From positions 243,598,001-243,662,000 of the forward strand of contig OZ024742.1 in NCBI GenBank assembly GCA_964016885.1: DNA of 64,000 nucleotides. Direction: 5' to 3'. Below, piece after piece: positions 12,271 through 62,480 of the stretch; the stretch's first letter is position 1; every line of letters begins with the position of its first letter. A program made the position numbers and the translations under genes. Under the pieces are notes generated by a model. It had not been told where the DNA came from. It did not search any database and saw only the letters and a list, made by a program, of their open reading frames with translations. Origin of the DNA: Eledone cirrhosa (taxonomy: Eukaryota).

Positions 12271-12280
12271 AATATATATA

Positions 12281-12336
<56 letters not shown>

Positions 12337-33508: not shown

Positions 33509-33569
33509 ACTCAATAAACGTAATGAAGACATAACAAATCGTCCTTTTATTAATATTAGTACTATATAC

Positions 33570-35749
33570 CAAGGGGGATATAATCGATAATTTCAGGCCC
33601 ATAACCCTGCTAAACGCAGAGTTCAAGATTTTGGCCAAGGTGTTAGCAACGAGGTTGGCGCTTGTCGTCAAGGGTCTGGTGGGAGAGGCGCAGACATGCG
33701 CCATTCCGGACAGATCCATACACGACAACCTCCACCTCATGCGATACATCATAGAGAGGGTGGTTAAGGAACCTGGCACGGGTGGGGCCCTGATCAACTT
33801 GGATCAATCCAAAGCATTCGATAGGGTCGACCATCGGTACCTGGTGGCGGTCCTCGAGGCAGCCGGTTTCGGGCCCGTTTTCAGGGGTTGGATCGCAGCA
33901 ATGTACAGCGACATCTGCTCAGTTGTGAGGGTGAACGGTCACCTGTCGCAGCCGTTCAGCATCATGCGCTCAGTCCGCCAGGGTTGTCCCCTCTCGTCCC
34001 TCTTGTACGTATTGGCTCTCGAGCCGTTACTGCACAAACTGGGGGCGATGAGGGGCGTCCCACGCGAACTAGGATGCGGGAAATCCGAGTCGGCTTACGC
34101 TGACGACGTCACCGTGGTGGTGTCGAGCACCAGACACGTCCAGATGCTCGGCACCGCTCTCAAGGAATACGAAGCGGTGACAGGAGCAAAGATAAACCAG
34201 GAAAAGTCGGTGGGCTTGCAGCTCGGCACCTGGAGAGGCAAGTCCATGTCGTCCGACAGCGTCGTGGGGCGTTGGACGGACGGACCGGTTAAATTGCTCG
34301 GGGTCTGGTTCGGACCGGACCTCCAGATGGAGAAAAACTGGAACGAGGTGACGAGCAAGGTGGCCTCCCTCACCCAGAAATGGGCCGAGAGGAAGCTGTC
34401 CCTGAAAGGCCGGGCGGAGGTGGCGAATGCGAACATCGCATCTGTCATCTGCTACCGCCTCACCGTCGTCCCTTGCTCCAGCCCAACTCTCACCAAAATG
34501 GAGCGCCTCCTCCTCCGCTTTTTGTGGAAGGGACGCGCTCCCATGGTCAGACGATCCATCTGCTGTCAACACCCGTTGCGTGGAGGACTGGGCAATCCAT
34601 GGCTGATGATGCGCAAACATGCGCTGAGGCTGCGACATCTCTGGTGCTTCCTTGATGGTGAACAGGTGTGGTCGCCGTTCGCCAGGCACGTTTTCCCACA
34701 GCTCGTCTCCTTGACGGAGCTGCAGTTCTGGGTCAGAAAAAGACGGAGGGATGGCGCTTGGAAACTGGAATGTCTCCAGGCGCTCACTGCCCTCTGCCAG
34801 CTGGGCACCAGTATCGGTGGAACATCCACCTCGGCGTTCTATAGAGGACTAGTGGAGGGGAAGAGCGACAACATTCTCGGAGAGATCCTGGGCGTCGAAG
34901 AAGATCAGCTGTTTGTTCTCTTCCGGAGAACTTTCAGCCCGGGGCCTATGGATAACTTCCAAAAATCTCTGGCCTGGCAGTGCTACCGGAGAGCGCTGCC
35001 GGTTCGAGATAAGCTCTACAGGCACGGAAGTGCCGTCAGCCGAGCCTGTCCGAGATGCGCGCAGAGCGACGAAACCGTCGTGCACGCACTCGTTCAGTGC
35101 CCGAGCATTGCTGACTTGTGGAGCTGTCGAACAGTTGCTGTCGCGTGTAGGACTGATCCGGTTGTCGACTGAGTCCATTGTGCAGATGGTCTCGCCGTCT
35201 TCCTTCGAGGAGGAAGGGCAGGCGGTTTTCATCTGCCTGGTGGCCATGGCGAAAGAGATTGTATGGTGGACAAGGTTGAAAGGGTTAAAGACAGACACTT
35301 TCCTCTTCGGCGAATCCCTAATTAACTTTTTCAAGTTTCACTTGAAGAGGAACATCAGGGTGGAGAGGCAAGTGCTGCTTTCTAGCAAGTTTGTTGAAAG
35401 GTGGGTGAATATAGCGAGAATGGTCCGAGTGAACGGGACCGCTCTGAATATATGTCTGTAGTTTGAGAGATGGAAAAATTGAGAGAGGGCGCTTGCCCTG
35501 GTGGTCAGGGTGGCTGTGGTCTTTTGTGTGGTTTTCGCCACGAGTAACCCTCGGAGGTTTCCCCCCTATTGGGGAATTTTTCATTGTTTCAATTTTCATT
35601 TTTATTGTTTATATTTATGTTTCTATGTCCTTTTTTTTCTTTTCTTATATAAATAATAAAAATATTTACACGCACAAAACCCACATCGTACCGTCCTGTG
35701 CCGTCTGTAATGTTTTTCTTGATGTCAGCCCTTGTGGCCAATAAAGAAA

Positions 35750-35781
<32 letters not shown>
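33570..35781 (+). mobile_element. Tx1/L1-clade LINE copy 1: 5'-truncated, ORF2 frameshifted near 35125, (ATT)n tail
   Basis: Starts inside RT (NFRPITLLN); QGCPLS, YADD, CPRC...H...C finger; stop at 35461; AATAAA then (ATT)10. More divergent than copies 2 and 3 are from each other. Confidence 0.95.
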
Positions 35782-35990
35782 GGCGACCTACGTAGTAAAT
35801 CGTATCATCGTGAGCTCCGCAAAGGTTTGTTATTTCCGTTTGTTAAAAATTGCCATTTATGGAAAATTTTATTGTTAACTGTTTATAAGCATACATACAT
35901 TGTTTTCCGAAAAGGACACCCAAAAAGATTGGGGCCTTGTGCCCAAAATTTTAACTTTTATTATTATCAAAAAATTTCTTTTAAAAAAAA

Positions 35991-37983
35991 ATGGCTAATT
36001 CACCTCTGCAACAAGCAGCTGAAAGCCTTCCTCACAAATTAACACCTCACACCGACACCACCATTGTAAATGTTACTACGTTTGCCAACACAAAAAAAAA
36101 ATATAAGCAGTAGCAATATTTTAAATTTGTCTCAGGCAGACATTTATTTCCCGCCATTACCAATGACTGCAGGTGTTAAAGCCTCCACCACCACCACCAC
36201 CGCGACAACCACCACCCCCACCACCACCGCGACAACAGAAACAAAAGAAGAAGAAAATAAATTAACTCGTGATGTCGAAATGAAATCAAGCAAAATGGAC
36301 TCTTCCGCACCAAAGACGACTGACGTCACCACCACCACAACTGAAACTAAAATTAATATTAACGATAGCAACAACAACAACAATGACATTATAAAACCGA
36401 CCCTCAGTTTCGCCAGAGTAGCAAAACAATTCGAAGCTTGTACGGTAACTCAGGAGGATTTAGAAAATGCCAAACAAATGGTAAAGAAAGATGGGTACAG
36501 GGTCAGCCTCACCCCCCCCCCCCTACCTAATAAAATGGAGCATCGGCGCCTATGCACAGTGTCGTATAGAACAATAAATGTAAAATCGCGCCGAGTGGAA
36601 CAGGCATCCGAGTCCCAAATCCAAAAAGCTTTGGGACATGTGTGGGGAAGAAAAACCCACATTAGACGTGGGCAAAAGTATGGAACCGTGGACGTGTTCT
36701 TTGAAACACCAGAGGAGGCTAGAGAACACTCCATGGCCCCATTAAAAAGTGACGACTTCACACTCGTCCCAAGCTATTGTGGCCAGAGACTCGTAAAGAT
36801 CAGGGTGACCCACGTTCCACCGGCCATCGAAATTCCCTGGCTAATAGCGGCCGTCCTCGCCGGCATCGAAGCCAACACGAAAATAATAGCAGTAGCAAAA
36901 GAAAAGCAGGAAAACTAGTCCGGATCTGGGATGGAGCTCCTGATCCAAGCGGACCAAAAAAGCATTGAGGAGATCCCAGAGGTAATAGACCTCACTGACG
37001 GCAGCCACCTCACGGTAATTGTCGAGGGCAGAAGACCTAGGTGTGTCGTTTGTGGTGAAGGAACCCACCTAAGGGCTTTCTGCCCTCAGGCTAAAAGGTT
37101 GAGGCCACCTCTACTACCCACCCCAGTGACACAACCATCAACACCACCAGTAGCAGAGATGGCAGCAACAACTGTAGCAGCAACAACAGAAGCAACTATA
37201 ACAGTAACAACCCCAGCAACAGTAGCAAAACCAACACCACTACCACCACCAGCAAAACCAACACCACCACCACCCAACGCTTCAGAACTAGCACCAGCGC
37301 CTACACCATCCACCACACCACAACCAAAACTAACGGCTGTGGAGGATTTTCCACTCCCCGGCCTATCACAACTGGAGACAGATTGTGACGACGAGGAGTG
37401 GGAAACGATATCCGGAAATAAAAAAAGAAACCAAAAAAGAAAAAATTCTCTTCCTTCCCCCTCCAAAAACAAAATACAGAGGGAAACAAATAAACTAAGA
37501 AACAAAAAAGTTAGGACAGATATGCCACCATCCACACCAGCATCACCAACCCCATCAACCCAAACACCAACACCATCACCATCATTATCCCCAGCACCAC
37601 CATCACCTACACCACAAAAGTCACCAAAATGCGAAACAGAAACAAACCCACAACAAACGCAAACAAAACAAAACAACCAAAACGATACACACTACACAGC
37701 ATTAAATTTGAACAACAAGCAATTATTACACTACATCCAACACAACACCAGCATCACAGAAAAAGACTACACAACAACCCCAAAATTCACACCACCTCCA
37801 CACATACAAATCACTCGCATCACACAGAAAACGTACATGACACTAAAACAAAAATTCCCCAAAGACATCGGAGACTTCCGACAAGCACTCTCCAGGAGGA
37901 TTTATAAGGACATCCTTCCTGAGGAGGCCACAAGCAGTGAAAAGGATGGAAAAGCCGTCCTTCCCCTACGAGAAGTAAGGTAA
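35991..37983 (+). pseudogene. ORF1 of copy 2 (RRM-like, CCHC knuckle, Pro/Thr-rich), disrupted
   Basis: Inferred start ATGGCT at 35991, shift in the A-run at about 36092-36101, TAG at 36916-36918 (Trp in copy 3), KYGTVDVFF, CVVCGEGTHLRAFC (CX2CX4HX4C). Confidence 0.85.
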
Positions 37984-38017
37984 GTGGTCTTTCCCATCTT
38001 TTCCACTCCTTTTCAAC

Positions 38018-41000
38018 ATGGCCTCACTCAGAATAGGCAGCATAAATGCGCGTGGCTTGGGGTCGTCATGGAAGCAGGGTCACCTGCTCAACGACCTCAG
38101 GTCACTAAACATAGATGTAGTGGCCATCAGCGAGACCAGAATCTCCGAAGCACAGGCTTTCGCACCGATCTTCGGCGGCTACGATGTGTACGCATCTCCC
38201 AGCCGTCCGGGATCGGGGGGAGGAGTTGCTGTGCTTTTTCGAAGAGGTTTGGATCTTGCCATACGGGCCATCTTCCTGGACCCAGAAGGTAAGTTGGTGG
38301 TGCTGGACGTGACCAGCGGAGACGGGCAAGCTTTCAGGTTAGTGGCCGTCTATGCCCCGACAGGAGCAGGGCGGCCTGATTTCTTCCGGCGTCTGGAGAC
38401 CTTTCTTGGAACGTCCCGCTCTTTAGTGTTAGTGGGCGACTGGAACGGGATCTTAGATGCACGCTGGGATTGTGTGGGATTAGTGGATAGGGAAGGAGGG
38501 TGCAAGAGTCTCACCAACCTGCTCAGACGTTTTGAACTGTCTGACAGGTACCGAATGGATTTCCCGAATGTACCAATGTGGACTTGGACAAATCGCATAG
38601 GGTCATCCAGATCATATCTAGATAGAGTATTTTGTAGGGAAATAGATAGGTCTAGCATAGGCTGTCCACAATTCAAGATAGTCAGCTACACGGACCACAA
38701 ATTCGTGATCTGTGTGCTTGACTTAGATAGGCTTCATAGACGAAGACCCGGCTACTGGAAGTTAAACGCGTCCTTACCAGCGCGCAAGGCCTACAGAGAC
38801 CGGATTAGCGAGCTAGTTAAGCGGGCGTTGACGGGGGCCATCGTCAACAACAAGTGGTGGTTTGCTCTGAAAAGAGCAATTAGAATAGAGTCCATTAGGT
38901 TTAGTAAGACTTTAGCAATAGAGAAAAATAGAGCAGAGGGAGAATTAGTTAGAAAATTAGATGAGGCGCTTAGCAAAGGCATCGCGACCGACGTACTTGC
39001 GGCGAAATTGGCCCTTGGCCAATTCTTCAATGCAAAGCACGAAGGCTGCGTTGTCAGAGCTAGGGTGCGTGCTCTCAGACACGAGGGGACGAAAGCCGTT
39101 CAATGGGCCCGAGTGGCGGAGGCGCGTCGTGGCAACAAAGCCACGATCCGGTCTTTGGTGGACCACGACGGGCGCATGCTACTCGATCCCGGGCAAATGT
39201 GTGAAGCTTTTCAGCGACACTTCGCTCAACTGTTCGGGGGCAGTGGCGGGCCGGATCGAGGGATGGACTTTAGTGTCTACCTCGACGGACTGCCGCGGCT
39301 TTCGGCCACTGAGGTGGAGTGTTGCGAAAAGCCGATAACAACCGCTGAAGTACGGGATGCAATGACTAGTTGCACAAGGGGTAAATCGCCTGGTTTGGAT
39401 GGTCTGCCCTATGAACTTTACGTACAAATGCCAAACTTGTTCGGAGGCCTCTTGGCGGACGTCTACTGCAACTGGCAACAGAACGGGAGAATTCCCAGTT
39501 CTGTGAGCCGAGGAGCGGTGGCGCTGCTGAGAAAGGATCCGAACAAGGGGGATAACATAGATAATTTTAGGCCCATAACTCTGCTAAACACAGAGTTCAA
39601 GATTTTGGCCAAGGTGGTAGCAAAGAGGTTGGCGCTTGTCGTTGGTGGTCTGGTGGGAGAGGCACAGACATGCGCCATTCCCGACAGATCCATCCACGAC
39701 AACCTCCACCTCATGCGATACATCGTAGAGAGGGTAGCTAGGGAACCTGGCACGGGTGGGTCTTTGATCAATTTAGATCAGTCGAAAGCCTTCGATAGGG
39801 TCGACCATCGTTACCTAGCGGCAGTCCTGCGGGCGGCTGGCTTTGGGCCCGTCTTCAGAGGCTGGATCGCTGCCATGCACAGCGACATCTGCTCTGTAGT
39901 GAGAGTGAACGGTCACCTTTCGGAACCGTTCAACATCATGCGCTCGGTCCGCCAAGGATGTCCCCTCTCGTCCCTAATGTACGTATTGACTCTCGAGCCA
40001 TTACTGCACAAACTGGAGACGTTGAGGGGGGTCCCGCGCGAACTAGGATGCGGAAGATCCGTGTCAGCATATGCCGACGATGTCACCGTAGTGGTGTCGA
40101 ACGCCAAACACATCGAGGCGATCGGCACTACACTAAGAGAATACGAAGCGGTGACAGGAGCAATGATCAACCAGGAAAAGTCAGTGGGCCTGCAGCTCGG
40201 CACCTGGAGAGGCAGGTCCATGCTGTCCAACAGCGTCGTCGGGCGCTGGACGGACGGACCGGTTAAATTGCTAGGGGTCTGGTTCGGTCCAGACCTCCAG
40301 ACGGACAAAAACTGGGACGAGGTGACGAGCAGGGTGGCTTCTCTCACCCAGAAATGGGCCGAGAGGAAGCTATCCCTGAAAGGTCTAGCGGAGGGGGCTA
40401 ACGCGTACATCGCGTCCGTCATCTACTACCGCCTGACCGTCGTACCTTATCCTAAGCCCCGCCAGACTGCGCTGGAGCGTTTGCTCTTTCGCCTTTTGTG
40501 GAAGGGACGCGCTCCGATGGTCAGGCAGTCCATCTGCTGTCAACACCCGCTACGTGGAGAGCTGGGAATGCCGTGGCTGATGATGCGCAGACACGCGCTC
40601 ATGCTACGACATCTCCACCTCTTCCTCGACGTTGACCAGGTGTGGTCGCCATTTGCTAGACGCGTCTTTCCCCAGCTCGTCTCCTTGACGAAGCTACAGT
40701 CCTGGGTCAAGCGAAGACCGAGAGGGAGCGCTTGGAGACTGGAATGTCTTCAGGCGCTCACAGCCCTCGACCAATCGGGCAATGTGATCGGTGGAAACTC
40801 CACCTTGGCGTTCTATAGAGGATTAGTGGAGGGGAAGAGCGACGACGTATTTGGGGAAACTCTAGGCGTCGACGAAAATCAACTAGCCAATCTCTTCGGA
40901 AGAAATTTCGGGCCGGGGCCTATGGACAACTTCCAGAAACCCCTGGCCTGGCAGTGCTACCGAGGAGCTTTGCCAGTTCGGGATAAACTCTACAGGCATG

Positions 41001-41443
41001 GAGGTGCCGTCGGCCGGGCATGTCCGAGATGCGCGCAGGGCGACGAAACCGTCCTGCACGCACTCGTCCAGTGTCCGAGTATTGCTGACTTGTGGGTTTA
41101 TGTCGAACACCTGCTGTCGCGTGTAGGACGGATCCAGCTATCAGCTGAGTCCATCGTGAGGATTGCCCCGCCCTCTTCCTTTAGCCGGGAAGGGCAGGCA
41201 GTTTTTATCTGTCTCGTGGTGGCCATGGCGAAAGAGATAGTATGGTGGACACGTTTGAAAGGGCTGAAGACGAGCATTTACCTCTTCGGTGATGCCCTGA
41301 TTAACATTTTTAAATTTATTTCATTTGAAAAGGAAAATCAGGGTAGAGGGGAAGTGCTCTCTTCCCAGCATTTTGCTGAAAGATGGGTGAGAGAGGCAAG
41401 AATGGCCCGAGTGAATGGGCCTTCTCTGAGTATGTGTCTGTAA
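38018..41443 (+). CDS. ORF2 of copy 2: AP endonuclease, reverse transcriptase, C-terminal zinc finger
   Basis: SINARGL, AISET, GDWN, YLDR, TDH (APE); KSPGLDG, FRPITLLN, KAFDRV, QGCPLS, YADD; CPRC-X8-H-X4-C. Compensating indels near 41315-41350. Confidence 0.95.
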   Translation: MASLRIGSINARGLGSSWKQGHLLNDLRSLNIDVVAISETRISEAQAFAPIFGGYDVYASPSRPGSGGGVAVLFRRGLDLAIRAIFLDPEGKLVVLDVTSGDGQAFRLVAVYAPTGAGRPDFFRRLETFLGTSRSLVLVGDWNGILDARWDCVGLVDREGGCKSLTNLLRRFELSDRYRMDFPNVPMWTWTNRIGSSRSYLDRVFCREIDRSSIGCPQFKIVSYTDHKFVICVLDLDRLHRRRPGYWKLNASLPARKAYRDRISELVKRALTGAIVNNKWWFALKRAIRIESIRFSKTLAIEKNRAEGELVRKLDEALSKGIATDVLAAKLALGQFFNAKHEGCVVRARVRALRHEGTKAVQWARVAEARRGNKATIRSLVDHDGRMLLDPGQMCEAFQRHFAQLFGGSGGPDRGMDFSVYLDGLPRLSATEVECCEKPITTAEVRDAMTSCTRGKSPGLDGLPYELYVQMPNLFGGLLADVYCNWQQNGRIPSSVSRGAVALLRKDPNKGDNIDNFRPITLLNTEFKILAKVVAKRLALVVGGLVGEAQTCAIPDRSIHDNLHLMRYIVERVAREPGTGGSLINLDQSKAFDRVDHRYLAAVLRAAGFGPVFRGWIAAMHSDICSVVRVNGHLSEPFNIMRSVRQGCPLSSLMYVLTLEPLLHKLETLRGVPRELGCGRSVSAYADDVTVVVSNAKHIEAIGTTLREYEAVTGAMINQEKSVGLQLGTWRGRSMLSNSVVGRWTDGPVKLLGVWFGPDLQTDKNWDEVTSRVASLTQKWAERKLSLKGLAEGANAYIASVIYYRLTVVPYPKPRQTALERLLFRLLWKGRAPMVRQSICCQHPLRGELGMPWLMMRRHALMLRHLHLFLDVDQVWSPFARRVFPQLVSLTKLQSWVKRRPRGSAWRLECLQALTALDQSGNVIGGNSTLAFYRGLVEGKSDDVFGETLGVDENQLANLFGRNFGPGPMDNFQKPLAWQCYRGALPVRDKLYRHGGAVGRACPRCAQGDETVLHALVQCPSIADLWVYVEHLLSRVGRIQLSAESIVRIAPPSSFSREGQAVFICLVVAMAKEIVWWTRLKGLKTSIYLFGDALINIFKFISFEKENQGRGEVLSSQHFAERWVREARMARVNGPSLSMCL

Positions 41444-41933
41444 ATTAAAGGTGGAAAACTGGGAGAGGGCACTTGCCCTAGTGGTCAGGGTCACTGTGGC
41501 TTTTTAATGGGCTTTCTCCACGAATGTCTCTTGGAGGTCTCCCCCCATATTGGGGAATTTTTTCATTGTTCTATTATTACATCCTCTGTTTCTTGTTTTT
41601 TTTTACACGCAGAAATGCCCTTTTGTACCCTCCTGTATTGTCCTGTACTGTCCTTAATGTCTACTTTATGTAAACCCTTGTGGTTAATAAAGAAAACATT
41701 ATTATTATTATTATTATTGAATGCCATGGTTGACGGAGGCTCGGCTCTGTAAGGTATAGTAATTTTTAACCGTTAAAACAATTGTAAATTGTTTAAAACT
41801 TGAACCAAATTGTTGATAAAGACACCCTCCTCCTCGTGAGAGGGGTCTTTCTGTCCGTTATTTGGCCCTTCGGGGTTAAATAACCAGTTATTGGGGTTTT
41901 GTACCCAAAATTTCATTTTAAACAAAAAACAAC

Positions 41934-44039
41934 ATGGCTACGAAAAAGAAATTTCATACGTCACTCCCACTCATTCCGTCTTCTTCTTCCTCAATCATCA
42001 CTACAGCAGAGAGAAGATTGTCTCTCTCCCTCCCTTCTTTAAATGTGTCTCTCTCCCTCCCTTCTCTTTCGCAAGTGACGAAAGAAAAGAAAAGTCTCGT
42101 GCAAAGCGTGCAAGGTTTCTCTACGACGACAGCGACGAAACAGGTGTGCGGGAAATACGAAAACCCAGTTCATTCGTCTGACGTCAGGAATAATAGCAGT
42201 AGCAGCCGTAATAACAACAGCAACAGTGACAATGAAAACAACAGTAGCAGCCGCAACAGCATCACCAGCAGCATAAACAACAACAGCATTAGCAGCAGCA
42301 ACACCAACAACAACCACAGCAACAGCGGCGGAGGCAGTAGTCGTAGTACCTGCAGCAACAACAAAAGTACCAGCAGCTCTGACGACAACAACAACAGCAG
42401 AGAAAAACCAATCTCATTTGCAGGTATTGCGAAAAACTTGGAAACAATCCTCATAACAAATGAGGAATTAGAGGAAGCGAAGAAGATGGTGACAAAGAAC
42501 GGACACCGAGCAATCTGCAAGGCAGCGGAAAAATTTTTCGAAACCCAAGAGCACTGTACGGTCACGTACCGTACAGTAAGTACAAAATCCCGTAGGGTGG
42601 AAAGAGCCACAGAGGCCCAAATACAAAAAGCCTTGGGGTCTGTGTGGCAGCGGAAAACGCACATCACCCGAGGCAAAAAATATGCCACCGTAGACGTACT
42701 TTTTGCCACACCCCAGGAGGCAAAGGCCCAATCAGTAGTGACCCTAAGGAGCGAGGAAATGGTGTTGGTGCCCTCCTACTGCGGGCAAAAAATTGTGAGG
42801 GTCAAACTGACCCACGTCCCCCCCCCCCCCCCCCCCCCCCCCCGGAATGACCCCTTCTTGGCTGGCCGCGTCTGTCCTCGTCGGAATCGAGGACAAAACA
42901 ACTGTACTGCAAGTACAGAAAAAAGTAAGAGAAGATTGGGTCGGCTCCTCCATTGAGATGCTAATCCAAACCAACCAGGAGTGCATCGAAGCTATCCCGG
43001 ATGTGATAGACTTCGATAACGGCACTCAACTGCCCATAAGTGTTGAGGGCAAACGCCCGAAATGCTTTCGCTGTGGATCGAAGACTCACCTCAGGGCCTT
43101 CTGCAACGAGAAGACCCTGAGAAAGGAGAAAACCCCCCTCCTTCCGAATCCGGCTCCACGGCTACCAGCAACAGGACAAGCGGCAACCAGGAACGATAGG
43201 TCCGTGGCACCCATACCCACTCCACGGAAATCAAAAACAGCAGCAGTGGAAATATTAACAACAACAACAGCAATACCAAATGCAGCTGCAACAGAGACTC
43301 CAGTAAAACATCACCAACAACAACAAGTGAAAGAGTGGAGCTGGTACCCCTCCCCGACCTCACAGAATCAGACATGGAGTGTGAGGTGGGAGAGGGATGG
43401 CAAAAGGTCGCAAGAAGGCACAAACGCAGAAGCAGCGCATCGTCGCCTTTGAAAAGGGAGGAAAGAAATGAGAAAAGGGTAAAGTCTACTGCAAAGAGAC
43501 CCACAGCAGCAACACTACCAACACCATCACCACCCACACCAGCACCACCATCACCACCGGCGACAACCCCACCGCCAACAACACCTTCAACACCACCACC
43601 ACAAGCACCAACATCGCAAACACAACAACAAAACACACACACCCAGCAACAACGACAAGAAAATAGCAGAACCACACCCCACCCCCAGAAAAACAAATGC
43701 ACGGCAATAAACACACACAACAAGAAACTAATGACTTACATAATTGAACACACAGACATTTCACAACAGGACTACATAATACCAGCACCAATCAAAACGC
43801 CAACTAACATAAGACTGCTAAAAATAGCACAGAAACAATACACAAACATTAAAACGAAATTCCCCAACGCAGTTGGTGATTTCAGGGACCTAGGAGGAAC
43901 CATCAATCGAAGAGTATATTCAGACATTCTCTTAGAAGAGCCGACGACCAGCCGAAGGGACGATTCAACGGTCCCTTCACCAGACGATCAAGTGAAAAGG
44001 GATGTAAAAACCATCCCTCCTCTACCAAAAGTACGGTAA
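41934..44039 (+). pseudogene. ORF1 of copy 3 (Ser/Asn-rich N-terminus, RRM-like, CCHC knuckle, Pro/Thr-rich) in three frames
   Basis: Frameshifts at the poly-C run (about 42818-42843, possibly a sequencing error) and near 43310-43340; KYATVDVLF, CFRCGSKTHLRAFC. Confidence 0.85.
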
Positions 44040-44074
44040 GTGGTCTTTCCCATCTTTTCCACTCTATTTTAAAC

Positions 44075-47000
44075 ATGACCTCACTCAGAATAGGCAGCAT
44101 AAATGCGCGTGGCTTGGGGTCGTCATGGAAGCAGGGTCACCTGCTCAACGACCTCAGGTCACTAAACATAGATGTAGTGGCCATCAGCGAGACCAGAATC
44201 TCCGAAGCACGGGCCTTCGCACCGATCTTCGGCGGCTACGATGTGTACGCATCTCCCAGCCGTCCGGGATCGGGAGGAGGAGTTGCTGTGCTTTTTCGGA
44301 GAGGTTTGGATCTCGCCATACGGGCCATCTTCCTGGACCCAGAGGGTAAGCTGGTGGTGCTGGACGTGACCAGCGGAGACGGGCAAGCTTTCAGGCTAGT
44401 GGCCGTCTATGCCCCGACAGGAGCAGGGCGGCCTGATTTCTTCCGGCGTCTGGAGACCTTTCTTGGAACGTCCCGCTCTTTAGTGTTAGTGGGCGACTGG
44501 AACGGGATCTTAGATGCACGCTGGGACTGTGTGGGATTAGCGGATAGGGGTGGAGGGTGCAAGAGCCTCACCAACCTGCTCAGGCGTTTTGAACTGTCTG
44601 ACAGGTACCGATTGGATTTCCCGAATGTGCCAATGTGGACTTGGACAAACCGTATAGGGTCATCCAGATCATATCTAGATAGAGTATTTTGTAGGGAAAT
44701 AGATAGGTCTAGCATAGGCTGTCCACAATTCAAGATAGTCAGCTACACGGACCACAAATTCGTGACCTGTGTGCTTGACTTAGATAGGCTTCATAGACGA
44801 GGACCCGGCTACTGGAAGCTAAACGCGTCCTTACCAGCGCGCAAGGCCTACAGAGACCGGATTAGCGAACTAGTTAAGCGGGCGTTGACGGGGGCCATCG
44901 TCAACAACAAGTGGTGGTTTGCTCTGAAAAGAGCGATTAGAATAGAATCGATTAGGTTTAGTAAGGCTTTAGCAATAGAGAAAAATAGAGCAGAGGGAGA
45001 ACTAGTTAGAAAATTAGACGAGGCGCTTAGCAAAGGCATTGCGACCGACGTGCTTGCGGCGAAATTGGCCCTTGACCAATTCTTCAATGCAAAGCACGAA
45101 GGCTGCGTTGTCAGAGCTAGGGTGCGTGCTCTCAGACACGAGGGGACGAAAGCCGTTCAATGGGCCCGAGTGGCGGAGGCGCGTCGTGGCAACAAAGCCA
45201 CGATCCGGTCTTTGGTGGACCACGACGAGCGCATGCTACTCGATCCCGGGCAAATGTGTGAAGCTTTTCAGCGACACTTTGCTCAGCTGTTCGGGGGCAG
45301 CGGGGGGCCGGGTAGAGGGATGGACTTTAGTGTCTACCTCGACGGACTGCCGCGGCTCTCGGCCACTGAGGCGAAGTGTTGCGAAAAGCCGATAACAGCC
45401 GCTGAAGTAAGGGAGGCAATGACTGGCTGCACAAGGGGTAAATCGCCTGGTTTGGATGGTCTGCCCTATGAACTTTACGTACAGATGCCAGACTTGTTCG
45501 GAGGCCTCTTGGCGGACGTCTACTGCAACTGGCAACAGAACGGGAGAATTCCCAGTTCTGTGAGCCGAGGAGCGGTGGCACTGCTGAGAAAGAATCCGAA
45601 CAAGGGGGATAACATAGATAATTTTAGGCCCATAACTCTGCTAAACACAGAGTTCAAGATTTTGGCCAAGGTGCTAGCAAAGAGGTTGGCGCTTGTCGTT
45701 GGTGGTCTGGTGGGAGAGGCGCAGACATGCGCCATTCCCGAGAGATCCATCCACGACAACCTCCACCTCATGCGATACATCATAGAGAGGGTAGCTAAGG
45801 AACCTGGCACGGGTGGGTCCTTGATCAATTTAGATCAATCGAAAGCTTTCGATAGGGTCGACCATCGTTACCTAGCGGCAGTCCTGAGGGCGGCTGGCTT
45901 TGGGCCCGTCTTCAGAGGCTGGATCGCTGCCATGCACAGCGACATCTGCTCTGTGGTGAGAGTGAACGGTCACCTGTCGGAACCGTTCAACATCATGCGC
46001 TCGGTCCGCCAAGGATGTCCCCTCTCGTCCCTCTTGTACGTATTGACTCTCGAGCCATTACTGCACAAACTGGAGACGTTGAGGGGAGTCCCGCGCGAAC
46101 TAGGATGCGGAAGATCCGTGTCAGCATATGCGGACGATGTCACCGTAGTGGTGTCGAACGCCAAACACATCGAGGCGATCGGCACTACACTAAGAGAATA
46201 CGAAGCGGTGACAGGAGCAATGATCAACCAGGAAAAGTCGGTGGGCCTGCAGCTCGGCACCTGGAGAGGCAGGTCCATGCCGTCCAACAGCGTCGTCGGG
46301 CGCTGGACGGACGGACCGGTTAAATTGCTCGGGGTCTGGTTCGGTCTGGACCTCCAGACGGACAAAAACTGGGACGAGGTGACGAGCAGGGTGGCTTCTC
46401 TCACCCAGAGATGGGCCGAGAGGAAGCTATCCCTGAAAGGTCGAGCGGAGGTGGCTAACGCGTACATCGCGTCTGTCATCTGCTACCGCCTAACCGTCGT
46501 ACCTTGTCCTAAGCCTCGCCTGACTGCGCTGGAGCGTTTGCTCTTTCGCTTTTTGTGGAAGGGACGTGCTCCGATGGTCAGGCGGTCCATCTGTTGTCAA
46601 CACCCGCTACGTGGAGGGCTGGGCATGCCGTGGCTGATGATGCGCAGGCACGCGCTCAGGCTACGACATCTCCACCTCTTCCTCGACGGTGATCAGGTGT
46701 GGTCGCCGTTTGCTAGACGCGTTTTTCCCCAGCTCGTTTCCTTGACGGAGCTGCAGTCCTGGGTCAAGCGAAGACCGAGAGGGAGCGCCTGGAGACTGGA
46801 ATGTTTTCAGGCGCTCACAGTCCTCGACCAATCGGGCAATGTGATCGGTGGAAACTCCACCTCGGCGTTCTATAGAGGATTAGTGGAGGGGAAGAGCGAC
46901 GACGTACTTGGGGAAACTCTAGGCGTCGACGAAAATCAACTAGCCAAACTCTTCGGAAGAACTTTCGGGCCAGGGCCTATGGACAACTTCCAGAAATCTC

Positions 47001-47494
47001 TGGCCTGGCAGTGCTACCGAGGAGCCTTGCCAGTTCGGGATAAACTCTACAGGCATGGAGGTGCCGTCAGCCGGGCATGTCCGAGATGCGCGCAGGGCGA
47101 CGAAACCGTCCTGCACGCACTCGTCCAGTGTCCGAAAATTGCTGACTTGTGGGTTTATGTCGAAAACCTGCTGTCGCGTTTAGGACGGATCCGGCTATCA
47201 TCTGAGTCCATCGTGAGGATTGCCCCGCCCTCCTCCTTTAGCCGGGAAGGGCAGGCAGTTTTTATCTGCCTGGTGGCCATGGTGAAAGAGATAGTATGGT
47301 GGACACGTTTGAAAGGGCTGAAGACGAGCACTTACCTCTTCGGTGATGCTCTGATTGACTTTTTCAAATTTCATTTGAAAAGGAAAATCAGAGTAGAGAG
47401 GGAAGTGCTCTCTTCCCAGCATTTTGTTGAAAGATGGGTGAGAGAAGCAAGAATGGCCCGAGTGAATGGGCCTACTCTGAGTATATATCTGTAA
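44075..47494 (+). CDS. ORF2 of copy 3: intact APE-RT-ZnF, 1139 aa
   Basis: All motifs listed for copy 2 are present, with no disruptions. Confidence 0.96.
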   Translation: MTSLRIGSINARGLGSSWKQGHLLNDLRSLNIDVVAISETRISEARAFAPIFGGYDVYASPSRPGSGGGVAVLFRRGLDLAIRAIFLDPEGKLVVLDVTSGDGQAFRLVAVYAPTGAGRPDFFRRLETFLGTSRSLVLVGDWNGILDARWDCVGLADRGGGCKSLTNLLRRFELSDRYRLDFPNVPMWTWTNRIGSSRSYLDRVFCREIDRSSIGCPQFKIVSYTDHKFVTCVLDLDRLHRRGPGYWKLNASLPARKAYRDRISELVKRALTGAIVNNKWWFALKRAIRIESIRFSKALAIEKNRAEGELVRKLDEALSKGIATDVLAAKLALDQFFNAKHEGCVVRARVRALRHEGTKAVQWARVAEARRGNKATIRSLVDHDERMLLDPGQMCEAFQRHFAQLFGGSGGPGRGMDFSVYLDGLPRLSATEAKCCEKPITAAEVREAMTGCTRGKSPGLDGLPYELYVQMPDLFGGLLADVYCNWQQNGRIPSSVSRGAVALLRKNPNKGDNIDNFRPITLLNTEFKILAKVLAKRLALVVGGLVGEAQTCAIPERSIHDNLHLMRYIIERVAKEPGTGGSLINLDQSKAFDRVDHRYLAAVLRAAGFGPVFRGWIAAMHSDICSVVRVNGHLSEPFNIMRSVRQGCPLSSLLYVLTLEPLLHKLETLRGVPRELGCGRSVSAYADDVTVVVSNAKHIEAIGTTLREYEAVTGAMINQEKSVGLQLGTWRGRSMPSNSVVGRWTDGPVKLLGVWFGLDLQTDKNWDEVTSRVASLTQRWAERKLSLKGRAEVANAYIASVICYRLTVVPCPKPRLTALERLLFRFLWKGRAPMVRRSICCQHPLRGGLGMPWLMMRRHALRLRHLHLFLDGDQVWSPFARRVFPQLVSLTELQSWVKRRPRGSAWRLECFQALTVLDQSGNVIGGNSTSAFYRGLVEGKSDDVLGETLGVDENQLAKLFGRTFGPGPMDNFQKSLAWQCYRGALPVRDKLYRHGGAVSRACPRCAQGDETVLHALVQCPKIADLWVYVENLLSRLGRIRLSSESIVRIAPPSSFSREGQAVFICLVAMVKEIVWWTRLKGLKTSTYLFGDALIDFFKFHLKRKIRVEREVLSSQHFVERWVREARMARVNGPTLSIYL

Positions 47495-47742
47495 ATTAAA
47501 GGTGGAAAACTGGGAGAGGGCACTTGCCTTGGTGGTCAGGGTCATTGTGGCTTTTTACTGGGCTTTCTCCACAAATGTCCCTCCGAAGTCTGCCCCCTAT
47601 TAGGGAATTTTTCATTGTTATTTTTTGTTACATCCTCTGTTTTTGTTTTTTACACGCAGAAATGCCCATTTGTACCGTCCTGCATTGTCCTGCACTGTCC
47701 TTAATGTCTACTTTATGTAAACCCTTGTGGTTAATAAAGAAA

Positions 47743-47780
<38 letters not shown>

Positions 47781-47782
47781 AA

Positions 47783-47976
47783 GAGCGGTGGATTGGTAGT
47801 ATCAGTAGCGCGTCAGACACCATGCTTTGCAGCATAGAGTTATGGCTCTTTAATTCTAAGTTCAAATCCCGCCGAGGTTAACTTTGCCTTTCATCCTTAC
47901 GGGGTCGATAAAATAAAGTACCAGTAATGCACTGGGTAATTGCTGGCCTTGTGCCAAATATAGAAACAATTATTAT
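47783..47976 (+). mobile_element. ATT-tailed tRNA SINE a few bases after the tail of LINE copy 3
   Basis: A-box TGGTAGTATCAG, B-box GTTCAAATCC, body GCCTTTCATCCTTACGGGGTCGATAAAATAAAGTACCAG, tail TGGCCTTGTGCCA...AGAAACAATTATT. Confidence 0.9.
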
Positions 47977-47983
47977 CATAGTA

Positions 47984-48195
47984 TCTATACATATATATAA
48001 AACTGAAATTGTATTTGTGTGTGTGTGTGTATGTGTGTGTGTGTCATATTTTTTGCAAAGTCTATTCAAATCTACATTTCTACTCCGATTGACTTCAAAC
48101 TTGCATTTATATATTCCTTGCGGTCTAAAGATATTAACTGCAGCTTTTATTTTTCAATTTTCTGTTGTTAAAGGCATGTTAGGCGCCGGTTAGCG
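47984..48195 (+). mobile_element. Probable Helitron 5' fragment
   Basis: A|TCTATACATATATATAAAA start, (GT)n, CCGATTGACTTCAAACTTG motif resembling non-autonomous Helitron 5' regions. Confidence 0.45.
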
Positions 48196-48270
48196 ATCTC
48201 TCTCTCTCTCTCTCTTTCTTGGTCTGTCTTTTTAAATAGATACATAGCTATAACGTCGCGCCCTTATAAT

Positions 48271-48449
48271 TGTTTCTACTTTAGGCACAAGGCCAGCAAT
48301 TATCCAGTGCATTACTGGTATTTTATTTTATCGACCCCGTAAGGATGAAAGGCAAAGTCAACCTCGGCGGGATTTGAACTCAGATCGTAAAGGGACGTAA
48401 CTATGCTGGAAAGCATGGCGTCCGACCCTCTACCGATACTCCCAATCCA
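48271..48449 (-). mobile_element. ATT-tailed tRNA SINE with 9-bp TSD
   Basis: CCTTATAAT at 48262-48270 and 48450-48458; near-identical to the units at 26640-27030. Confidence 0.88.
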
Positions 48450-48682
48450 CCTTATAATATATGTCTGCATTACGACATCATGAAAACATTGTTCTCATTG
48501 CTGACGTATTATCTTCGCTATTTTCCGTTCATTGCCAGGAACGTCTTCACGAACCAAAGTATCGTCTTCCTGTTTTCCTTCGGTTGCAACGTTTTTCGAT
48601 TGATTTTTTTAGTTTCAGAAGATGTCGTTAAGGGTGAAAGCAGCGATTCTTTGCTTAAACTTTAATCTGTTGTTTTAATATA

Positions 48683-49601
48683 TCTATATATATAATTATA
48701 TATTCGTGTACAGATATTTCTGCATACACAAAAACAAAATATAAACAAACATATTTATTTCACGAAAGCACAGACGACTTATCGTCATTGTTACTGCCGA
48801 TATGCCACCCAAAAAGTCCCACTACTTTTGGCACAAGGCTAGCAATTACATAGTCAACCGTTCGGAAATCACATGCATCACTGACGAGTTTACTCCTTAC
48901 TCTACCAGTTAATCTTAGTGTACCTCGTCCTGCTTTTAGGTCATGCCTCGAAGGAAGAGATACTCCATTGGCCGAAATACTGCGAAAGCGGCAAGAAAAA
49001 GAACAAGGCGGGCAAACGAATCGTCAGTGGAATCTGCTATTCGGCGGTCGCAAGATGCTGAACGTACTGCCACTAGAAGAGCACTTGAAACAGACAACCA
49101 ACGAACCATTCGCCGAACCGTATCAGCTTTGCAATGTCTATCAACAAATCCCAGGATCAGACCCTAGCTGTTGCTGGTCTTCTTTTGGAAGAGTCATGTT
49201 TTTCACACGGGCAACTATACGTTGGCTGCTCAAATCTATTTGCATATGCCCGACACGGAAGAACAAGGAACATTGTGTACAAGGAGGTGCTACAATCATT
49301 GTTTAGGTATACGAGGCAGAAGGGGATATACACGATTGGCTGAAGAAGGACGAGACTGTGTTAGTAGTACAACCAATGGCTGCTATCATACCAACAGCAG
49401 CAAAAACAACAACAAAAGAGAGAGGGAACGCAAGTATATGCTTTTGAAAAATCTTAATGGAAAATTATTTGCCCAAGCACAAAATGTAGACACCATCCCC
49501 AGACCGAGGTATTCCGTACTCCTCTGTACTGTTTCAGAAAGGAGGGATAAACATGCCAATCTATGTTTAGAAGCCCGAAGAGCGCCGGGCCATTCTGCTA
49601 G
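48683..49601 (+). mobile_element. Internally deleted non-autonomous Helitron
   Basis: 5' A|TCTATATATATAA; 3' hairpin GCCCG...CGGGC then CTAG|T. Contains a Rep N-terminus-like MPRRKR...RRSQDAER fused to PIF1 helicase motifs AMSINKSQDQTL, CFSHGQLYVGCS and NIVYKEVL. Confidence 0.88.
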
Positions 49602-53762: not shown

Positions 53763-55043
53763 CACAAGGGTGGACTGAAAAGTTCCTAGGCTGAATATGA
53801 AACAGTGAGGCTAAAGCTCTGAAATTTTACATGCATTCATTTCAACTATTCTAATAACTGCATTGTTTCTTTCCAGGTAAACTGACATCTGACTGTTCAA
53901 AGAAGACTTCAAAGGTAACGTCTCTTGAAAATGGACAAAATTTGGCATCATGGTGTTATCAAGTACCTGCAGATAAAAGGTTAAGCCCCCAAGGACATTC
54001 ATGCTGACTTGGTTGCTACATTATGGGATGACACTCCAGCTTCATCAACTGTGCAAAAGTGGGCAGCTGAATTTAGGAAAGGAAGGGAGAGTCTTGAAAA
54101 TAACCCATGTTCTGGATGTCCTGCAACTTCCACCACAAAGGAAAACATTGATTGTGTTCACTATATGATGGTGGATGACAGGTAGTTGACTATAAATCAA
54201 ATAGCCAATACTATTACCAGATCCCATGAGAGAGTTGAGAATATTCTGCACAATGAACTTGGCATGATGAAGATTTCTGCTCGGTGGGTGCCATGTCTTC
54301 TGACACCTGATCAAAAGCACACCAGGCTGATCACATCACAGGAAAACCTGACATTGTCTGAGGCAGATCCAGCTGGTTTCTTTGAACAGTTCCTAATCCA
54401 GGATGAGTGTTGGGTTCATCACTTTGAGCTAGAGACAAAGAGACAATCCATGCAGTGGAAACACACCACCTCAGCTGCTCCAAAGAAGACCAGAGTCATT
54501 GCATCTGCAGGGAAAGTGATGGCCTCAGTTTTGGGGGATGCAAAAGACATTGTGTTTATTAACAATCTTCAAAAGGGCCACACCATCAAGGAAGAGTACT
54601 ATGCCAACTTACCGAGGCAGTTACAAAAGGCTATCAAGACCAAACATCCAGGAAAACTGATGAAAGGAGTTTTGTTTCATCAGGACACTGCTCCTTGGTT
54701 TCAATGGCTACTGTGTGTGATTGTGGCTTTGAACTGGTTGATCACCCTCTTTATTCTCCTTATTTTTCCCTATCTGGTTATCATCTGTTCCTCAACATGA
54801 AAAAACATTTGATTTGTAACCAGTATCGCAGTGATAATGAGGTCATATCTGCTTTTGATGACTTTTTTTACCTTTTACCAACAGGATGAAAGCTTCTCCA
54901 CCAATGGGATCCAAGCATTTCAACACCAATGAAAGATGTGTGTGGACCAGAAATGGCAGGGGGGCAATGTTGATAAATAAATATTGGTCACATTACATGA
55001 AAGTATCTTGGTCAGCCTATGTTGTTTTCAGCCTATCCTCTTA
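53763..55043 (+). mobile_element. Decayed mariner transposon, about 1.28 kb; transposase pseudogene from 53931
   Basis: HTH region (STVQKWAAEFRKGRESLE), WVPCLLT, DECWV, FHQD, YSPYFSLSGYHLF (degenerate YSPDLAP.D); stops and frameshifts; degenerate TIRs ...CTGAAAA...TAGGCTGA. Confidence 0.92.
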
Positions 55044-56305: not shown

Positions 56306-56497
56306 ATAATAATTGTTTCTACTTTTGGCACAAGGCCAGCAATTATATCCCAGTGTATTACTGGTACTTTATTTTATCGACCCCGTAAGGATGAAAGGCA
56401 AAGTTAACCTTGGCGCGATTTGAACTCAGAATGGAAAGGGCCATAACTCTATGCGTCAAAGCATGGCGTCCGACCCTCTACCGCTACTGCAATCCAA
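56306..56497 (-). mobile_element. ATT-tailed tRNA SINE
   Basis: Same head, body and tail; flanked by ATTATT on both sides on the - strand. Confidence 0.88.
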
Positions 56498-58928: not shown

Positions 58929-59633
58929 AGTCATTGCCAATATATAGAGAGAGGGGTGGGGAGAAAGAAAGGAAGATAGATAGATTTTGGAAATAAAAAA
59001 GATGTGTATATGTATGAATATGAGAGAGGGGACAGTGATTGAATGTGTGTGCACAGACAGACAGACTGACAGATAGATAGAGGGAGATTGAAAATATATA
59101 TATATACACAGAGAAAGAGGGAGAGATTGAGAAATATATATATATATAGAGAGAGAGAGAGGGAGAGAGAAAGAGACTGATGGGAAAACAGATAGATAAA
59201 GAGATTGACAGATTACTATTTATATATTAATATTCAATATGGTTTTAGCCATCTAGGACTTTTTAACATCTATCTAATATAGACTTTATGCCACCTGCAA
59301 CCTCCCTTCCTTTCCCCTACCTCTACTTTTGTCTCACTCTCTTGCCTCCTTCTGACTCTACATATTCCTCTCCCTTTCACATCCTTGACTGTCCGCCTTC
59401 TTCATTCTGTCTGCCGGGGCCATGGGACGGCCAGCACGTGGGCACCCATTTGCTCATAATACAGAGAGATGGGGAGGGCGAGAGAGATGGAGGCGATGAC
59501 AGTGGGAGTTCAGCTCTTCTGTGTTCGGACCTGGTGTGCAGTGTCAGTTATCCGAAGGGGGGTAGTGATTTGTACTTAGCGAAGGTTTTTAGAACCTTGT
59601 GTTTGTGATTCCTGTGTGTATTATTATATATTA

Positions 59634-59828
59634 GGGCGGTGAATTGGCAGTATCGGTAGAGGGTTGGATGCCATGCTTTGATGCATAGAGTTACGGCCCT
59701 TGCCATTCTGAGTTCAAATCCCGCCGAGGTTAACTTTGCCTTTCATCCTTACGGGGTCGATAAAATAAAGTACCAGTAATGCACTGGGTAATTGCTGGCC
59801 TTGTGCCAAAAGTAGAAACAATTATTAT
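59634..59828 (+). mobile_element. ATT-tailed tRNA SINE
   Basis: GGCGGTGAATTGGCAGTATCGG head ... TGGCCTTGTGCCAAAAGTAGAAACAATTATT. Confidence 0.9.
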
Positions 59829-60019: not shown

Positions 60020-62480
60020 TTAGGCCCCAGCTCTTTCTGTAGTTGGATGTGTCACTATTCATCGGATAGGTAACAATGATGGGGTAGGTGAAGTAAGCCT
60101 ACTGTTAGCTGAGAAATGGATAAATGAAATAACTGAGGTAGCCAAACTTAGACTAGTCCGATGCAATAGAATAACTACTGTTATCTTAGTCTATGAGAAA
60201 TGAGCAAGTATCATTTCTTTAAGATCTTGTGGATCATCTTAATAACAAGTAACAGTGACTTCATTATTGTGGCTAGTGACTTTAATAGATATGTTTGACA
60301 ATACCTGGATGGCTACTCTTGAGTATATGGTAGCTGTAGGTATGACTCAAGGAAAGAAGAAAGGTCAAGACTTCCAGCAGGTCTGTGAATCAAATGATCT
60401 AATCATCTGCAACATTATTCTGGGACCCAAGTTTTTCAACCTCCTCGCAATGGACCCTGAAAACTGACCATCATCATCATCATCGTTTAACATCCATCTT
60501 CCATGCTAGCATGGGTTAATCTCTTATCTCAATCAGGTGAATGACAACAACATGAGACCAACTCATGCACAAGAAGAAGAACATGAAATCAATCAGCCAC
60601 ATAATCACCTACCAATTAGGATGGTGACATGGTGGTGGAATAGTACAATAGATAGAGCCATAACAGCTGAAAGGAAAGTCTGAAAGATTAAAATAGAGGG
60701 CAGCAAAGGGCCATATCAAGACACTAGATATCAGATTTACATAGCACAAAGAGAAACTGTTAACAAGTGGATTTCTAGTGTTCTGCATTGACAGGATTAG
60801 AGGCATGAGATATCCCCAGATGTTGTTGGGAAAAAGTGTATTCAGAATAACAGTGGAGCACTTAGCCTACTTGATGCTTAGAAAAAAAGAGTCCTAGAAA
60901 TGTCATTATGGGAGGGGGGGGGGGGGGTACTGAATGTGGAGAATATGTAAGGAAGAAAGGAACTACTCCCAGTAGATCTAACAGAGAGATTAGCTATCAA
61001 GGTCAAGACTGATATAGTTGAGGAGGATATAAAGAAGGGAAAAGCTGCTAAACATTCATGGATAGTCAGTGGGGTGCTGAAAATATCCAGCAAATTAGGA
61101 CCCTAGGTAGCCACTTGCATAATAACTAAGAAGTACATGATGATGTCATACCTGATGACTAGTGTATCAGTATCGTTAGTAGTTGTAACAAGTGTGTGTG
61201 GGGGGGGGGGGGCAGAATTGGTAGAGCATCAGATAAAATACCTCTGCAATCTTTGTTCTGGTTCTTTACATTCGGGGTTCAAATTCCACCATTGTCAACT
61301 TTGTCTTTAATCCTTCCAATGTCGATAAAATAAAGTACCAATCAAGTACTGTAGGAAGACCCCAGCATCATTTAGCAAGAAGAAAAAGAATCAAGTACTG
61401 GGTTGATTTAATCAACTTTATACTTCCTCCAAATTTGCTGGCTCCGGACTTAATTAGAAATCAATAATAATGATTTCTAGTATAGGCACAAAGCCAGTAA
61501 TTTGGGGAGAGGGGAAAATCGATTAAATCGACCCAGTACATTACTGGTGCTTTATTTTATCGACCCCATAAGGATGAAAAGCAAAGTTAACCTCGACAGG
61601 ATTTAAACTCAGATCATAATGGAACGTAACTCTATGCCACAAAGCATGGCGTCAGACCCTCTACTGATACTGCCAATCCACCACAATAATAATACTGATT
61701 TCTAATAGAGAATTTTTAAGAGGGTGATGGATTGGCAGTTGTTAGAGTACTGACCAAATGTATAGCAGTATTTTTCTGGCTCTACATTCTAAGTTCAAAT
61801 CTTGCCAAAGTCAGCTTTGCTTTTCATCCTTCTGGTATCAATGAAATAAAGTTCCAGTAAAGTACTGGAGCTGATACAATCGACTTTTCCCTCTCCACAA
61901 ATTATTTAACCTTATACATGTAGTTGTCACGGTAAAAAGTACCCAGCACACACTGTAAATGTGGTTGGCGTTAGGAAGGGCATCCAACCGTAGAAAACCA
62001 GCCAGAAACTCTGCTATATGAGCGAGACACGATCACCCAACCCAACTTGCCTCTAATTGGGACAAACCCGTCTAACCCATGCTACCCTGGTATATAGACG
62101 TTAATGGAGAATGATGATGATGATGATGATATACCTAAATTTAAAAATTCATTATTAATTGCTACAAGGTCAAAGGTAATGCTCAAGAAAAGAGCACCTG
62201 CAAAGACATCAGACTGATGGATCAAGTTATGAAAGTAGCAGAATTTTATTAGCTCTATTGATTTGAAATAAAATTAGGTGAGATGAGATGTTGTTTGGAT
62301 TTGTGCCAAGATGAAGAACCACTGATGTCCTCTTTTAGTGAGACGACTGCAAGATAAATTTCTAGCTAACAGTAAGCAACTATATTTAGCTTTTGTTGAT
62401 CTGGAGAATGCCTTTGACAGAATACCAGGATTTGTATTATGGTGGTTTTTGAGGAAATTACATGTAGATCAACTGCTGGT
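60020..62480 (+). pseudogene. Old fragmented RTE LINE (APE and RT remnants) interrupted by SINEs
   Basis: LLLAEKWI (APE region); FGFVP, TTDVLF, LYLAFVDLENAFDRIP (RT) at about 62280-62460. Confidence 0.65.
61208..62130. mobile_element. SINE cluster: + SINE (about 61208-61470) tail-to-tail with - SINE (about 61464-61685), another + SINE (about 61722-61915) and an RTE-tail fragment (about 61925-62130)
   Basis: Repeated B-box GTTCAAAT, GC(C/T)TTTCATCCTT-type bodies, shared AAT/ATT junction at about 61463-61471, final (GAT)n. Confidence 0.8.

Follow-up and report, generated by a model that had tools for sequence, protein, structure and literature searches.

Does the LINE that forms an array in this stretch of the Eledone cirrhosa genome mobilize the abundant SINE lying beside it, and does a short hairpin at the 3' ends of both elements serve in that process? 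The stretch analyzed (the window) is 64,000 nt long and belongs to a genome of 3.0 Gb (GCA_964016885.1, contig OZ024742.1, positions 243,598,001 to 243,662,000). The original prediction, made from these letters, was that the two elements are partners. The LINE and the SINE have an oriented ATT target and a duplication register in common, and we consider a partnership at the level of the LINE lineage, with or without the hairpin, to be very probable.

LINE array in the window

Three LINE copies lie head to tail at 33570-47777, because these LINEs insert into one another's tails. The features of the array, all on the forward strand, are as follows.

33570-35751 (+), LINE copy 1, 5' truncated, from the RT to the 3'UTR; ~84% identical to copy 3 over the aligned part
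35728-35738 (+), GCC-CTTGT-GGC, the 3' hairpin of copy 1; AATAAA and GAAA come next
35752-35781 (+), (ATT)10 tract, the end of copy 1 and the 5' flank (target) of copy 2
35782-41697 (+), LINE copy 2, full length, 5'UTR type 2
35932-35944 (+), 5'UTR hairpin of copy 2, GGGC-CTTGT-GCCC, and downstream of it a spacer and a short run of ATT, in the same register as in the SINE tail
35991 (+), ATG of ORF1 of copy 2, its frame interrupted by one frameshift and one stop codon; CCHC knuckle at 37042
38018-41443 (+), ORF2 of copy 2, open, with APE, RT, and zf-RVT
41673-41685 (+), 3' hairpin of copy 2, AACC-CTTGT-GGTT
41698-41718 (+), (ATT)7 tract between copies 2 and 3
41719-47744 (+), LINE copy 3, full length, 5'UTR type 3
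41894-41906 (+), 5'UTR hairpin of copy 3, GGGT-TTTGT-ACCC, homologous to that of copy 2
41934 (+), ATG of ORF1 of copy 3, split over three frames by frameshifts; CCHC knuckle at 43063
44075-47494 (+), ORF2 of copy 3, open, 1139 aa
47720-47732 (+), 3' hairpin of copy 3, AACC-CTTGT-GGTT; AATAAA at 47733-47738, GAAA end at 47742
47745-47777 (+), (ATT)11 tract between copy 3 and a SINE

Elsewhere, the window holds an RTE-like fragment (5352-6182, -) with a PHD finger ahead of a C-terminal RT part and with no ATT end in the 350 nt viewed, a fragment that we take to be of a Mariner-like transposase (54186-54800, -), and TA-rich repeats of 8- to 10-nt units extending over several kilobases (57-12890).

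Identity, age, and lineages of the LINE

A domain search of ORF2 found an N-terminal APE, an RT, and a C-terminal zinc finger (zf-RVT). The closest solved structure is human L1 ORF2p (E value, 1e-50), with R2 reaching only 1e-21, and the element is an L1-group non-LTR retrotransposon, as had been predicted for its RT. Copies show 5' truncation and target duplications of 10 to 20 bp, which are readable in two copies and masked elsewhere by pure ATT tracts. A CCHC knuckle motif is present in ORF1 of both full-length copies, although both ORF1s are broken; no relevant Pfam family was found in the ORF1 pieces. A CCHC zinc knuckle in ORF1 is a feature of the Tx1 clade, and together with the target preference it makes a Tx1-type element likely. 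The 45 homologues retrieved bore no informative clade names.

The family is large and young. There are 58,852 first-look candidates genome-wide, and the best 150 of these copy-3-type matches have ~99% protein identity, with ORF2 open in many of them; exact LINE tails with an 8-nt spacer number 10,040. Sampled LINE ends are 83 to 99.6% identical to their nearest neighbors. Sister lineages, with ORF2 60 to 69% identical, end in and insert into (TATC)n but have kept the same hairpin, and by eye (TATC)n adjoined all six full-length 5' ends of sister families in eight stretches. Sister lineages targeting (TATC)n or (TAAC)n-like repeats form arrays of their own (L078, L131-L142, and L308-L315), and some ~45-nt copies comprise little beyond the hairpin region (L056 and L199). 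The repeat content of the window is reminiscent of octopod cephalopods. For Octopus vulgaris, the text of the annotation lists 13 L1-Tx1 families with recent activity and a SINE share of 11.6% and does not name partners (PMC13282606).

SINE family

The first SINE in the list below directly follows the (ATT)11 tract of the array, and further copies are scattered through the window.

47783-47968 (+), SINE with an A-box-like (47794-47805) and a B-box-like (47860-47868) sequence and a central body
47944-47956 (+), hairpin of that SINE, TGGC-CTTGT-GCCA; GAAA end at 47966
59633-59820 (+), SINE, flanking duplication beginning ATTAT; hairpin TGGC/GCCA at 59796-59808
56306-56496 (-), SINE, hairpin TGGC/GCCA at 56338-56326
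48266-48451 (-), SINE of a subfamily with T.T as the fourth pair
26647-27225 (-), three SINEs head to tail with ATT runs at the joints; hairpin TGGC/GCCA at 26682-26670
61464-61682 (-), SINE of an older type, end GAAATC-ATT, loop TTTGT

The SINE is ~190 bp long and noncoding, with A and B boxes (recognized by the general consensus of such boxes), target duplications, and a high copy number. It had been called abundant, and exact tails of the main type indeed number 141,068 genome-wide. Judging from the tRNA-type promoter boxes, the SINE is of the tRNA-derived type; ARAGORN found no tRNA. Its central body presumably resembles that of MetaSINEs. Older SINE central bodies occur on unrelated tails (L055, L056, L058, L061, and L067), which suggests that there were other partners earlier. 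At G000:C1:141006933-141007554, five SINE-tail matches ~70 bp apart form a tandem array derived from the SINE 3' end.

The SINE was also held to be dedicated to the ORF2 at 44075-47494. This is not supported, as the hairpin occurs in at least three ATT lineages and in the TATC sisters and the SINE is on average more diverged than the family of copy 3. Its median identity to the column majority is 93.5%, with 10% of copies at 98% or above; it looks older than the family of copy 3 and appears to overlap better with older ATT families. Because the TATC sisters have the same hairpin, the module belongs to the lineage as a whole; what points to the ATT families is the ATTAT register. The partner of the SINE was probably the ATT lineage over time, mostly through families older than copy 3.

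Target sites of the LINE and the SINE

A tract of (ATT)≥4 adjoins the 5' end in 29 of 30 full-length LINE copies taken in genome order, the remaining copy having three ATT units in an interrupted tract, and in all 16 full-length 5' ends found in a second set (20 stretches tried). Truncated copies likewise lie at ATT (5 of 6, and 15 to 16 of 21 in a second family, by eye). The LINE inserts into (ATT)n tracts in one orientation. A recurrent repeat follows many LINE tails (3' flanks of L008-L010, L026, L029, L118, L121, and L126); we assume that it may be the reverse strand of a (TAA)n-tailed element, e.g., Dong/R4.

For the SINE, the sampled stretches and the flanks define the counts: an unbiased sample of 120 stretches of 10 kb at round coordinates (1.2 Mb, 0.04% of the genome) was used, the tail set comprises 136 tails (195 cores less 59 without a tail by pattern), and the flank analysis comprises 131 SINEs, after 5 further copies without flanks were dropped. 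Duplications scoring at least 10 were present in 64 of the 131 SINEs versus 3.1 ± 1.6 with shuffled flanks, and most were 12 to 20 bp long. Although starts up to +17 were allowed, 58 of the 64 have their start no more than 4 nt from GAAA, at ATTAT. The duplication starts with ATTAT two bases past GAAA; therefore, GAAA-NN is the end of the SINE proper, and the short ATT “tail” consists for the most part of duplicated target. Since 122 of the 131 copies end in 0 to 2 ATT units, the (ATT)n tail that had been ascribed to the SINE does not hold generally. The base before ATTAT was C or T in 37 of 46 cases, A in 9, and G in none (by eye, offsets 1 and 2), a signal that is in part a product of the offset rule. 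Upstream (ATT)≥3 was found in 18 of 131 SINEs versus a background of 0.4%, and (ATT)≥4 was found in just 7. The preference of the SINE for ATT is real but much looser than that of the LINE.

A comparison of duplications between the two elements had been proposed with the original prediction. Readable LINE duplications were sought where the target is not pure ATT, and in L115 (18 bp) and L119 (16 bp) the duplication starts directly after GAAATC, at the same register as in the SINE; two further candidates had no duplication. No ATT units were gained at L115, whose tail is therefore target sequence. In addition, a same-strand SINE followed 18 of 81 scored LINE ends within 20 nt, whereas an opposite-strand SINE followed none of the 81 (chance, ~0.2% each; 85 loci less 4 without a scored end). 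This difference indicates an oriented target common to both elements, whichever inserted first.

Hairpin-GAAA module at the 3' ends

The LINE and SINE 3' ends were said to share CCTTGTG-N8-AGAAA, and this motif occurs nine times in the window (3 LINE and 6 SINE ends) versus 0.008 times expected from base composition, the nine representing about three lineages and hence being nonindependent. The hairpin sites with stems GCC/GGC, AACC/GGTT, and TGGC/GCCA were all found where they had been placed. In the SINE at 61464-61500 (-), the end AGAAATCATTATTATT is, as predicted, that of LINE copies 1 and 3, but the loop is TTTGT. Because the motif is short and its effective lineages in the window number three, we considered whether unrelated elements had converged by chance in AT-rich sequence. 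This explanation is largely refuted and seems to us highly improbable, as only ~48 non-SINE, nonanchored positions among 2.4 million exceeded 11 bits on the SINE-tail matrix, several of them SINE or LINE fragments, and the oriented target and register are common to LINE and SINE.

When LINE ends in the 1.2-Mb sample were anchored on ORF2 instead of on the motif, 21 of 25 reached a recognizable terminus, where by eye the three pairs were kept in 18, shifted in register in 2, and broken in 1. The loop, which was supposed to be constant, has five variants among LINE lineages (CTTGT, CTGGT, CTAGT, CTCGT, and CCTGT; consensus, C-Y-N-G-U). The supposedly fixed distance to GAAA is constant in 125 of 136 SINE tails but is 8 to 10 nt across LINE lineages, i.e., 0 to 2 nt longer in several of them. 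Nor is a 4-bp stem the rule: the outer T-A (fourth) pair is T.T in 46 of 125 SINE tails, and 5 of 12 lineage representatives have no pairing there. Three base pairs of the stem are conserved.

The predicted covariation is seen in two changes between lineages and not inside the SINE. In 12 hand-chosen lineage representatives, the three core pairs are paired in all 36 cells, with a double change at two pairs, G-C to A-U in the family of copies 2 and 3 and C-G to G-C between LINE and SINE. These are only two independent compensatory events; the shuffle control for covariation ignores kinship, and the tree of 250-nt pieces, some of them out of register, served solely to count G-C to A-U as one event. 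Among the 100 matches listed of the 10,040 LINE tails, the outer core pair was A-U or G-C in 99, G-U in 1, and A.C in none. Within the SINE, which has a single stem type with subfamily variation outside the 11-nt core, no compensatory subfamily was found. At the middle pair of its stem, there are 275 double changes as against 141,068 intact tails, close to the number expected from single-site decay and thus consistent with neutral decay.

Across eight lineage 3'UTRs, 14 of the last 30 columns are invariant versus 22 of 308 elsewhere, and 6 of the 14 belong to AATAAA; conservation in the 3'UTR is highest at the terminus, in part through AATAAA. Predicted pairing of the hairpin is 0.65 to 0.9 in LINE 3'UTRs. 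In whole SINE RNA it is 0.15 for two window SINEs and has a median of 0.04 for 80 others, with a competing predicted hairpin covering the loop, and the SINE tail folds no better than shuffles (z, -0.2 to -0.3). This poor predicted folding in SINE RNA is the main evidence against a required structure. A longer stem between upstream bases and AAUAAAGAAA is predicted in LINE copies 1 to 3 (z, -1.7 to -1.8) and is absent from the SINE.

The same LINE lineage could mobilize the SINE with a dispensable hairpin, by linear recognition of UUGUG/GAAA or by AUU priming alone, the hairpin of the LINE serving 3'-end processing. The weak 3-bp stem with its low predicted pairing in SINE RNA and the absence of covariation within the SINE would fit such a scheme, as would the position of the hairpin, which abuts AATAAA in all LINE ends while the SINE has no AATAAA. 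However, the SINE hairpin and the G-C type LINE hairpin differ at exactly both partners of one pair, and SINE subfamily polymorphisms all spare the 11-nt core. We regard a dispensable hairpin as unlikely and hairpin-dependent stringent recognition, by analogy with known stringent LINEs, as moderately probable.

On a SINE-tail weight matrix, the three LINE copies score 12.7 to 18.9 bits, and 8 of the 25 ORF2-anchored ends exceed 11 bits; by eye, the SINE tail matches copy 1 at 16 to 17 and copy 3 at 14 of 24 nt. The SINE might still owe its spread to a different LINE with an ATT end or an ATT target, either the CR1-like element at 27985-29465 (-) or an extinct or unsampled one. The CR1-like family likewise has (ATT)n ends, its age is similar (94 to 98% among top matches), the specificity and age of the SINE do not match those of the youngest L1-type family, and the sample covers a small fraction of the genome. 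Yet the CR1-like tail scores -4.5 bits on the same matrix, 19 displayed CR1-like 5' junctions had neither (ATT)≥3 nor a tail-initiated duplication (by eye), and recognizable ends of other LINEs in the sample never outscored L1-type ends. On balance, another LINE as the source is quite improbable. The CR1-like element has a small hairpin of its own, and the L1-type LINE inserts into its tails (L027, L097, L294, and L295).

Hairpin ahead of ORF1

Copies 2 and 3 have ORF2s that are 95% identical, yet their 5'UTR-ORF1 DNA cannot be aligned by blastn (35782-37935 versus 41719-43990); this may reflect 5' module exchange or fast divergence, and there are at least five 5' types. In both copies, a hairpin lies 27 to 46 nt ahead of the ORF1 ATG. 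Its pattern has 3,574 matches, and in the 100 matches listed the closing pair is C-G, U-A, or U-G, with no C.A; the pattern was not found in TATC families. Three more 5'UTR types have longer stems and other U-rich loops. With copies 2 and 3 and loci L305, L307, L318, and L322, the hairpin is conserved in at least five 5'UTR types, with the stem kept and the loop variable. Type 3 also has a 12-bp stem with a UUCG loop (41857-41884) and a neighboring hairpin with CTCCTCGTG (~41819-41850), which to us is reminiscent of an HDV-like ribozyme loop. An Rfam scan of 33000-49000 gave nothing near a gathering score, so that a known ribozyme is absent from these 5'UTRs.

The type 2 hairpin has the stem and loop of the SINE, including its G-C middle pair, and its score of 20.4 bits exceeds that of every LINE 3' end. 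It is identical to the SINE tail at 18 to 19 of 24 nt (by eye), and the ATT run that comes after it is in register. The SINE tail may derive from this hairpin; alternatively, the hairpin may be a second site for binding, or the likeness may reflect convergence. If the hairpin is the source, the SINE tail would come from the 5'UTR and not from the LINE 3' end and would work by mimicking the 3' module. The SINE-type stem was found at none of 147 LINE 3' ends, in keeping with such an origin. On the other hand, the remaining 5'UTR types have the stem without this loop, no short retrocopy was found to end at the mimic (805 copies run on, and 9 of 9 variants continue into ORF1), and older SINE subfamilies end in GAAATC, as does the LINE 3' end. 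We therefore view a 5'UTR origin of the tail as rather doubtful.

Proposed mechanism

The reading that we favor, and consider reasonably probable, is that an L1-group LINE that inserts one way into (ATT)n and shares the hairpin-GAAA end and register with the SINE mobilizes the SINE in trans. By analogy, the process is most likely target-primed reverse transcription by an L1/Tx1-type ORF2p. The protein would hold the 3-bp hairpin with its C-Y-N-G-U loop and the GAAA, and its endonuclease would nick the bottom strand, leaving a primer that ends in ...AAT-3'. This primer would pair with the AUU after GAAA-NN and so set the start of reverse transcription, and a second-strand cut ~12 to 20 bp further on would produce the duplication. 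The LINE RNA may be cleaved after AAUAAA within a read-through (AUU)n, which would favor long tracts, whereas short ATTAT sites would suffice for a SINE RNA that has only AUUAU(U). The general mechanism of L1 retrotransposition underlies these steps. Binding, nick position, and RNA ends are modeled on it and on the L2 elements as described in PMC4176376.

A bolder and only tentative proposal is that the 3-bp hairpin with GAAA acts as a ruler for the priming site, the repeat tail coming from the target, and that the module was kept across a switch from (ATT)n to (TATC)n. The mimic ahead of ORF1 in one family would then be a second ORF2p site, for translation control or packaging, as well as the source of the tail of the 140,000-copy SINE.

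Comparison with known SINE-LINE pairs

No description of this pair was found in the literature searched, with Repbase, Dfam, subscription papers, and some supplements and figures lying outside its reach. Hairpin-sharing SINE partners have rarely been described for animal L1/Tx1-type elements; Table 1 of PMC3747384 has 3 L1-clade tail-sharing SINEs among 58 pairs and no animal L1/Tx1 pair. In maize and sorghum, ZmSINE2 and ZmSINE3 share the conserved last ~45 nt of the L1-clade LINE1-1_ZM (PMC3472496, PMC3747384). As described there, the plant LINE has a hairpin with a conserved loop, a variable stem, and compensatory changes and shares it with tRNA SINEs, which resembles the Eledone pair. In contrast, its lineage is that of plants, its hairpins have energies of -11 to -18 kcal/mol, and its ends are poly(A) or poly(T), whereas the Eledone pair combines an animal element, a 3-bp stem, and a microsatellite target.

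In crocodilians, a Tx1-type LINE, Tx1-Mar, was assigned as the partner of SINEU via a shared target (PMC4494074). There, too, the SINE is less specific than the LINE, but SINEU combines snRNA heads with poly(A) tails, and the account in that paper does not name a shared 3' structure. Microsatellite targeting is known in Tx1 from Kibi, Koshi, and the crocodilian (TTCC)n and (TTTC)n families; the same account names neither (ATT)n nor (TATC)n as a target. The model for recognition is provided by UnaL2/UnaSINE and by ZfL2-1 and ZfL2-2, in which ORF2p recognizes a 3' stem-loop whose loop gives specificity (PMC4176376). Those elements belong to the L2 clade, and for them recognition was shown by assay and the binding region is placed between EN and RT, whereas the Eledone pair is known from sequence. 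The SINE itself is like the MetaSINE superfamily in its tRNA-type head, central domain, and exchangeable tails (PMC4824008), but the partners reported for MetaSINEs in that text and for bivalves (PMC11481361) are unknown, Nimb, or CR1-Zenon, with Tx1 not named.

The pair is an animal case that is young and high in copy number, with ORF2 open in many copies and an 11-nt hairpin. Since its sister lineages combine one RNA signal with different targets, RNA recognition could be studied separately from target choice, and the system is relevant to the question whether the L1 group was ancestrally stringent in its recognition. An RT that targets (ATT)n in one orientation is also of interest as a site-selective integrator. 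Each part of the system is known from elsewhere, and what we describe is a new combination, not a new class: by analogy, the Eledone pair would work like ZmSINE/LINE1-1_ZM and SINEU/Tx1-Mar combined.
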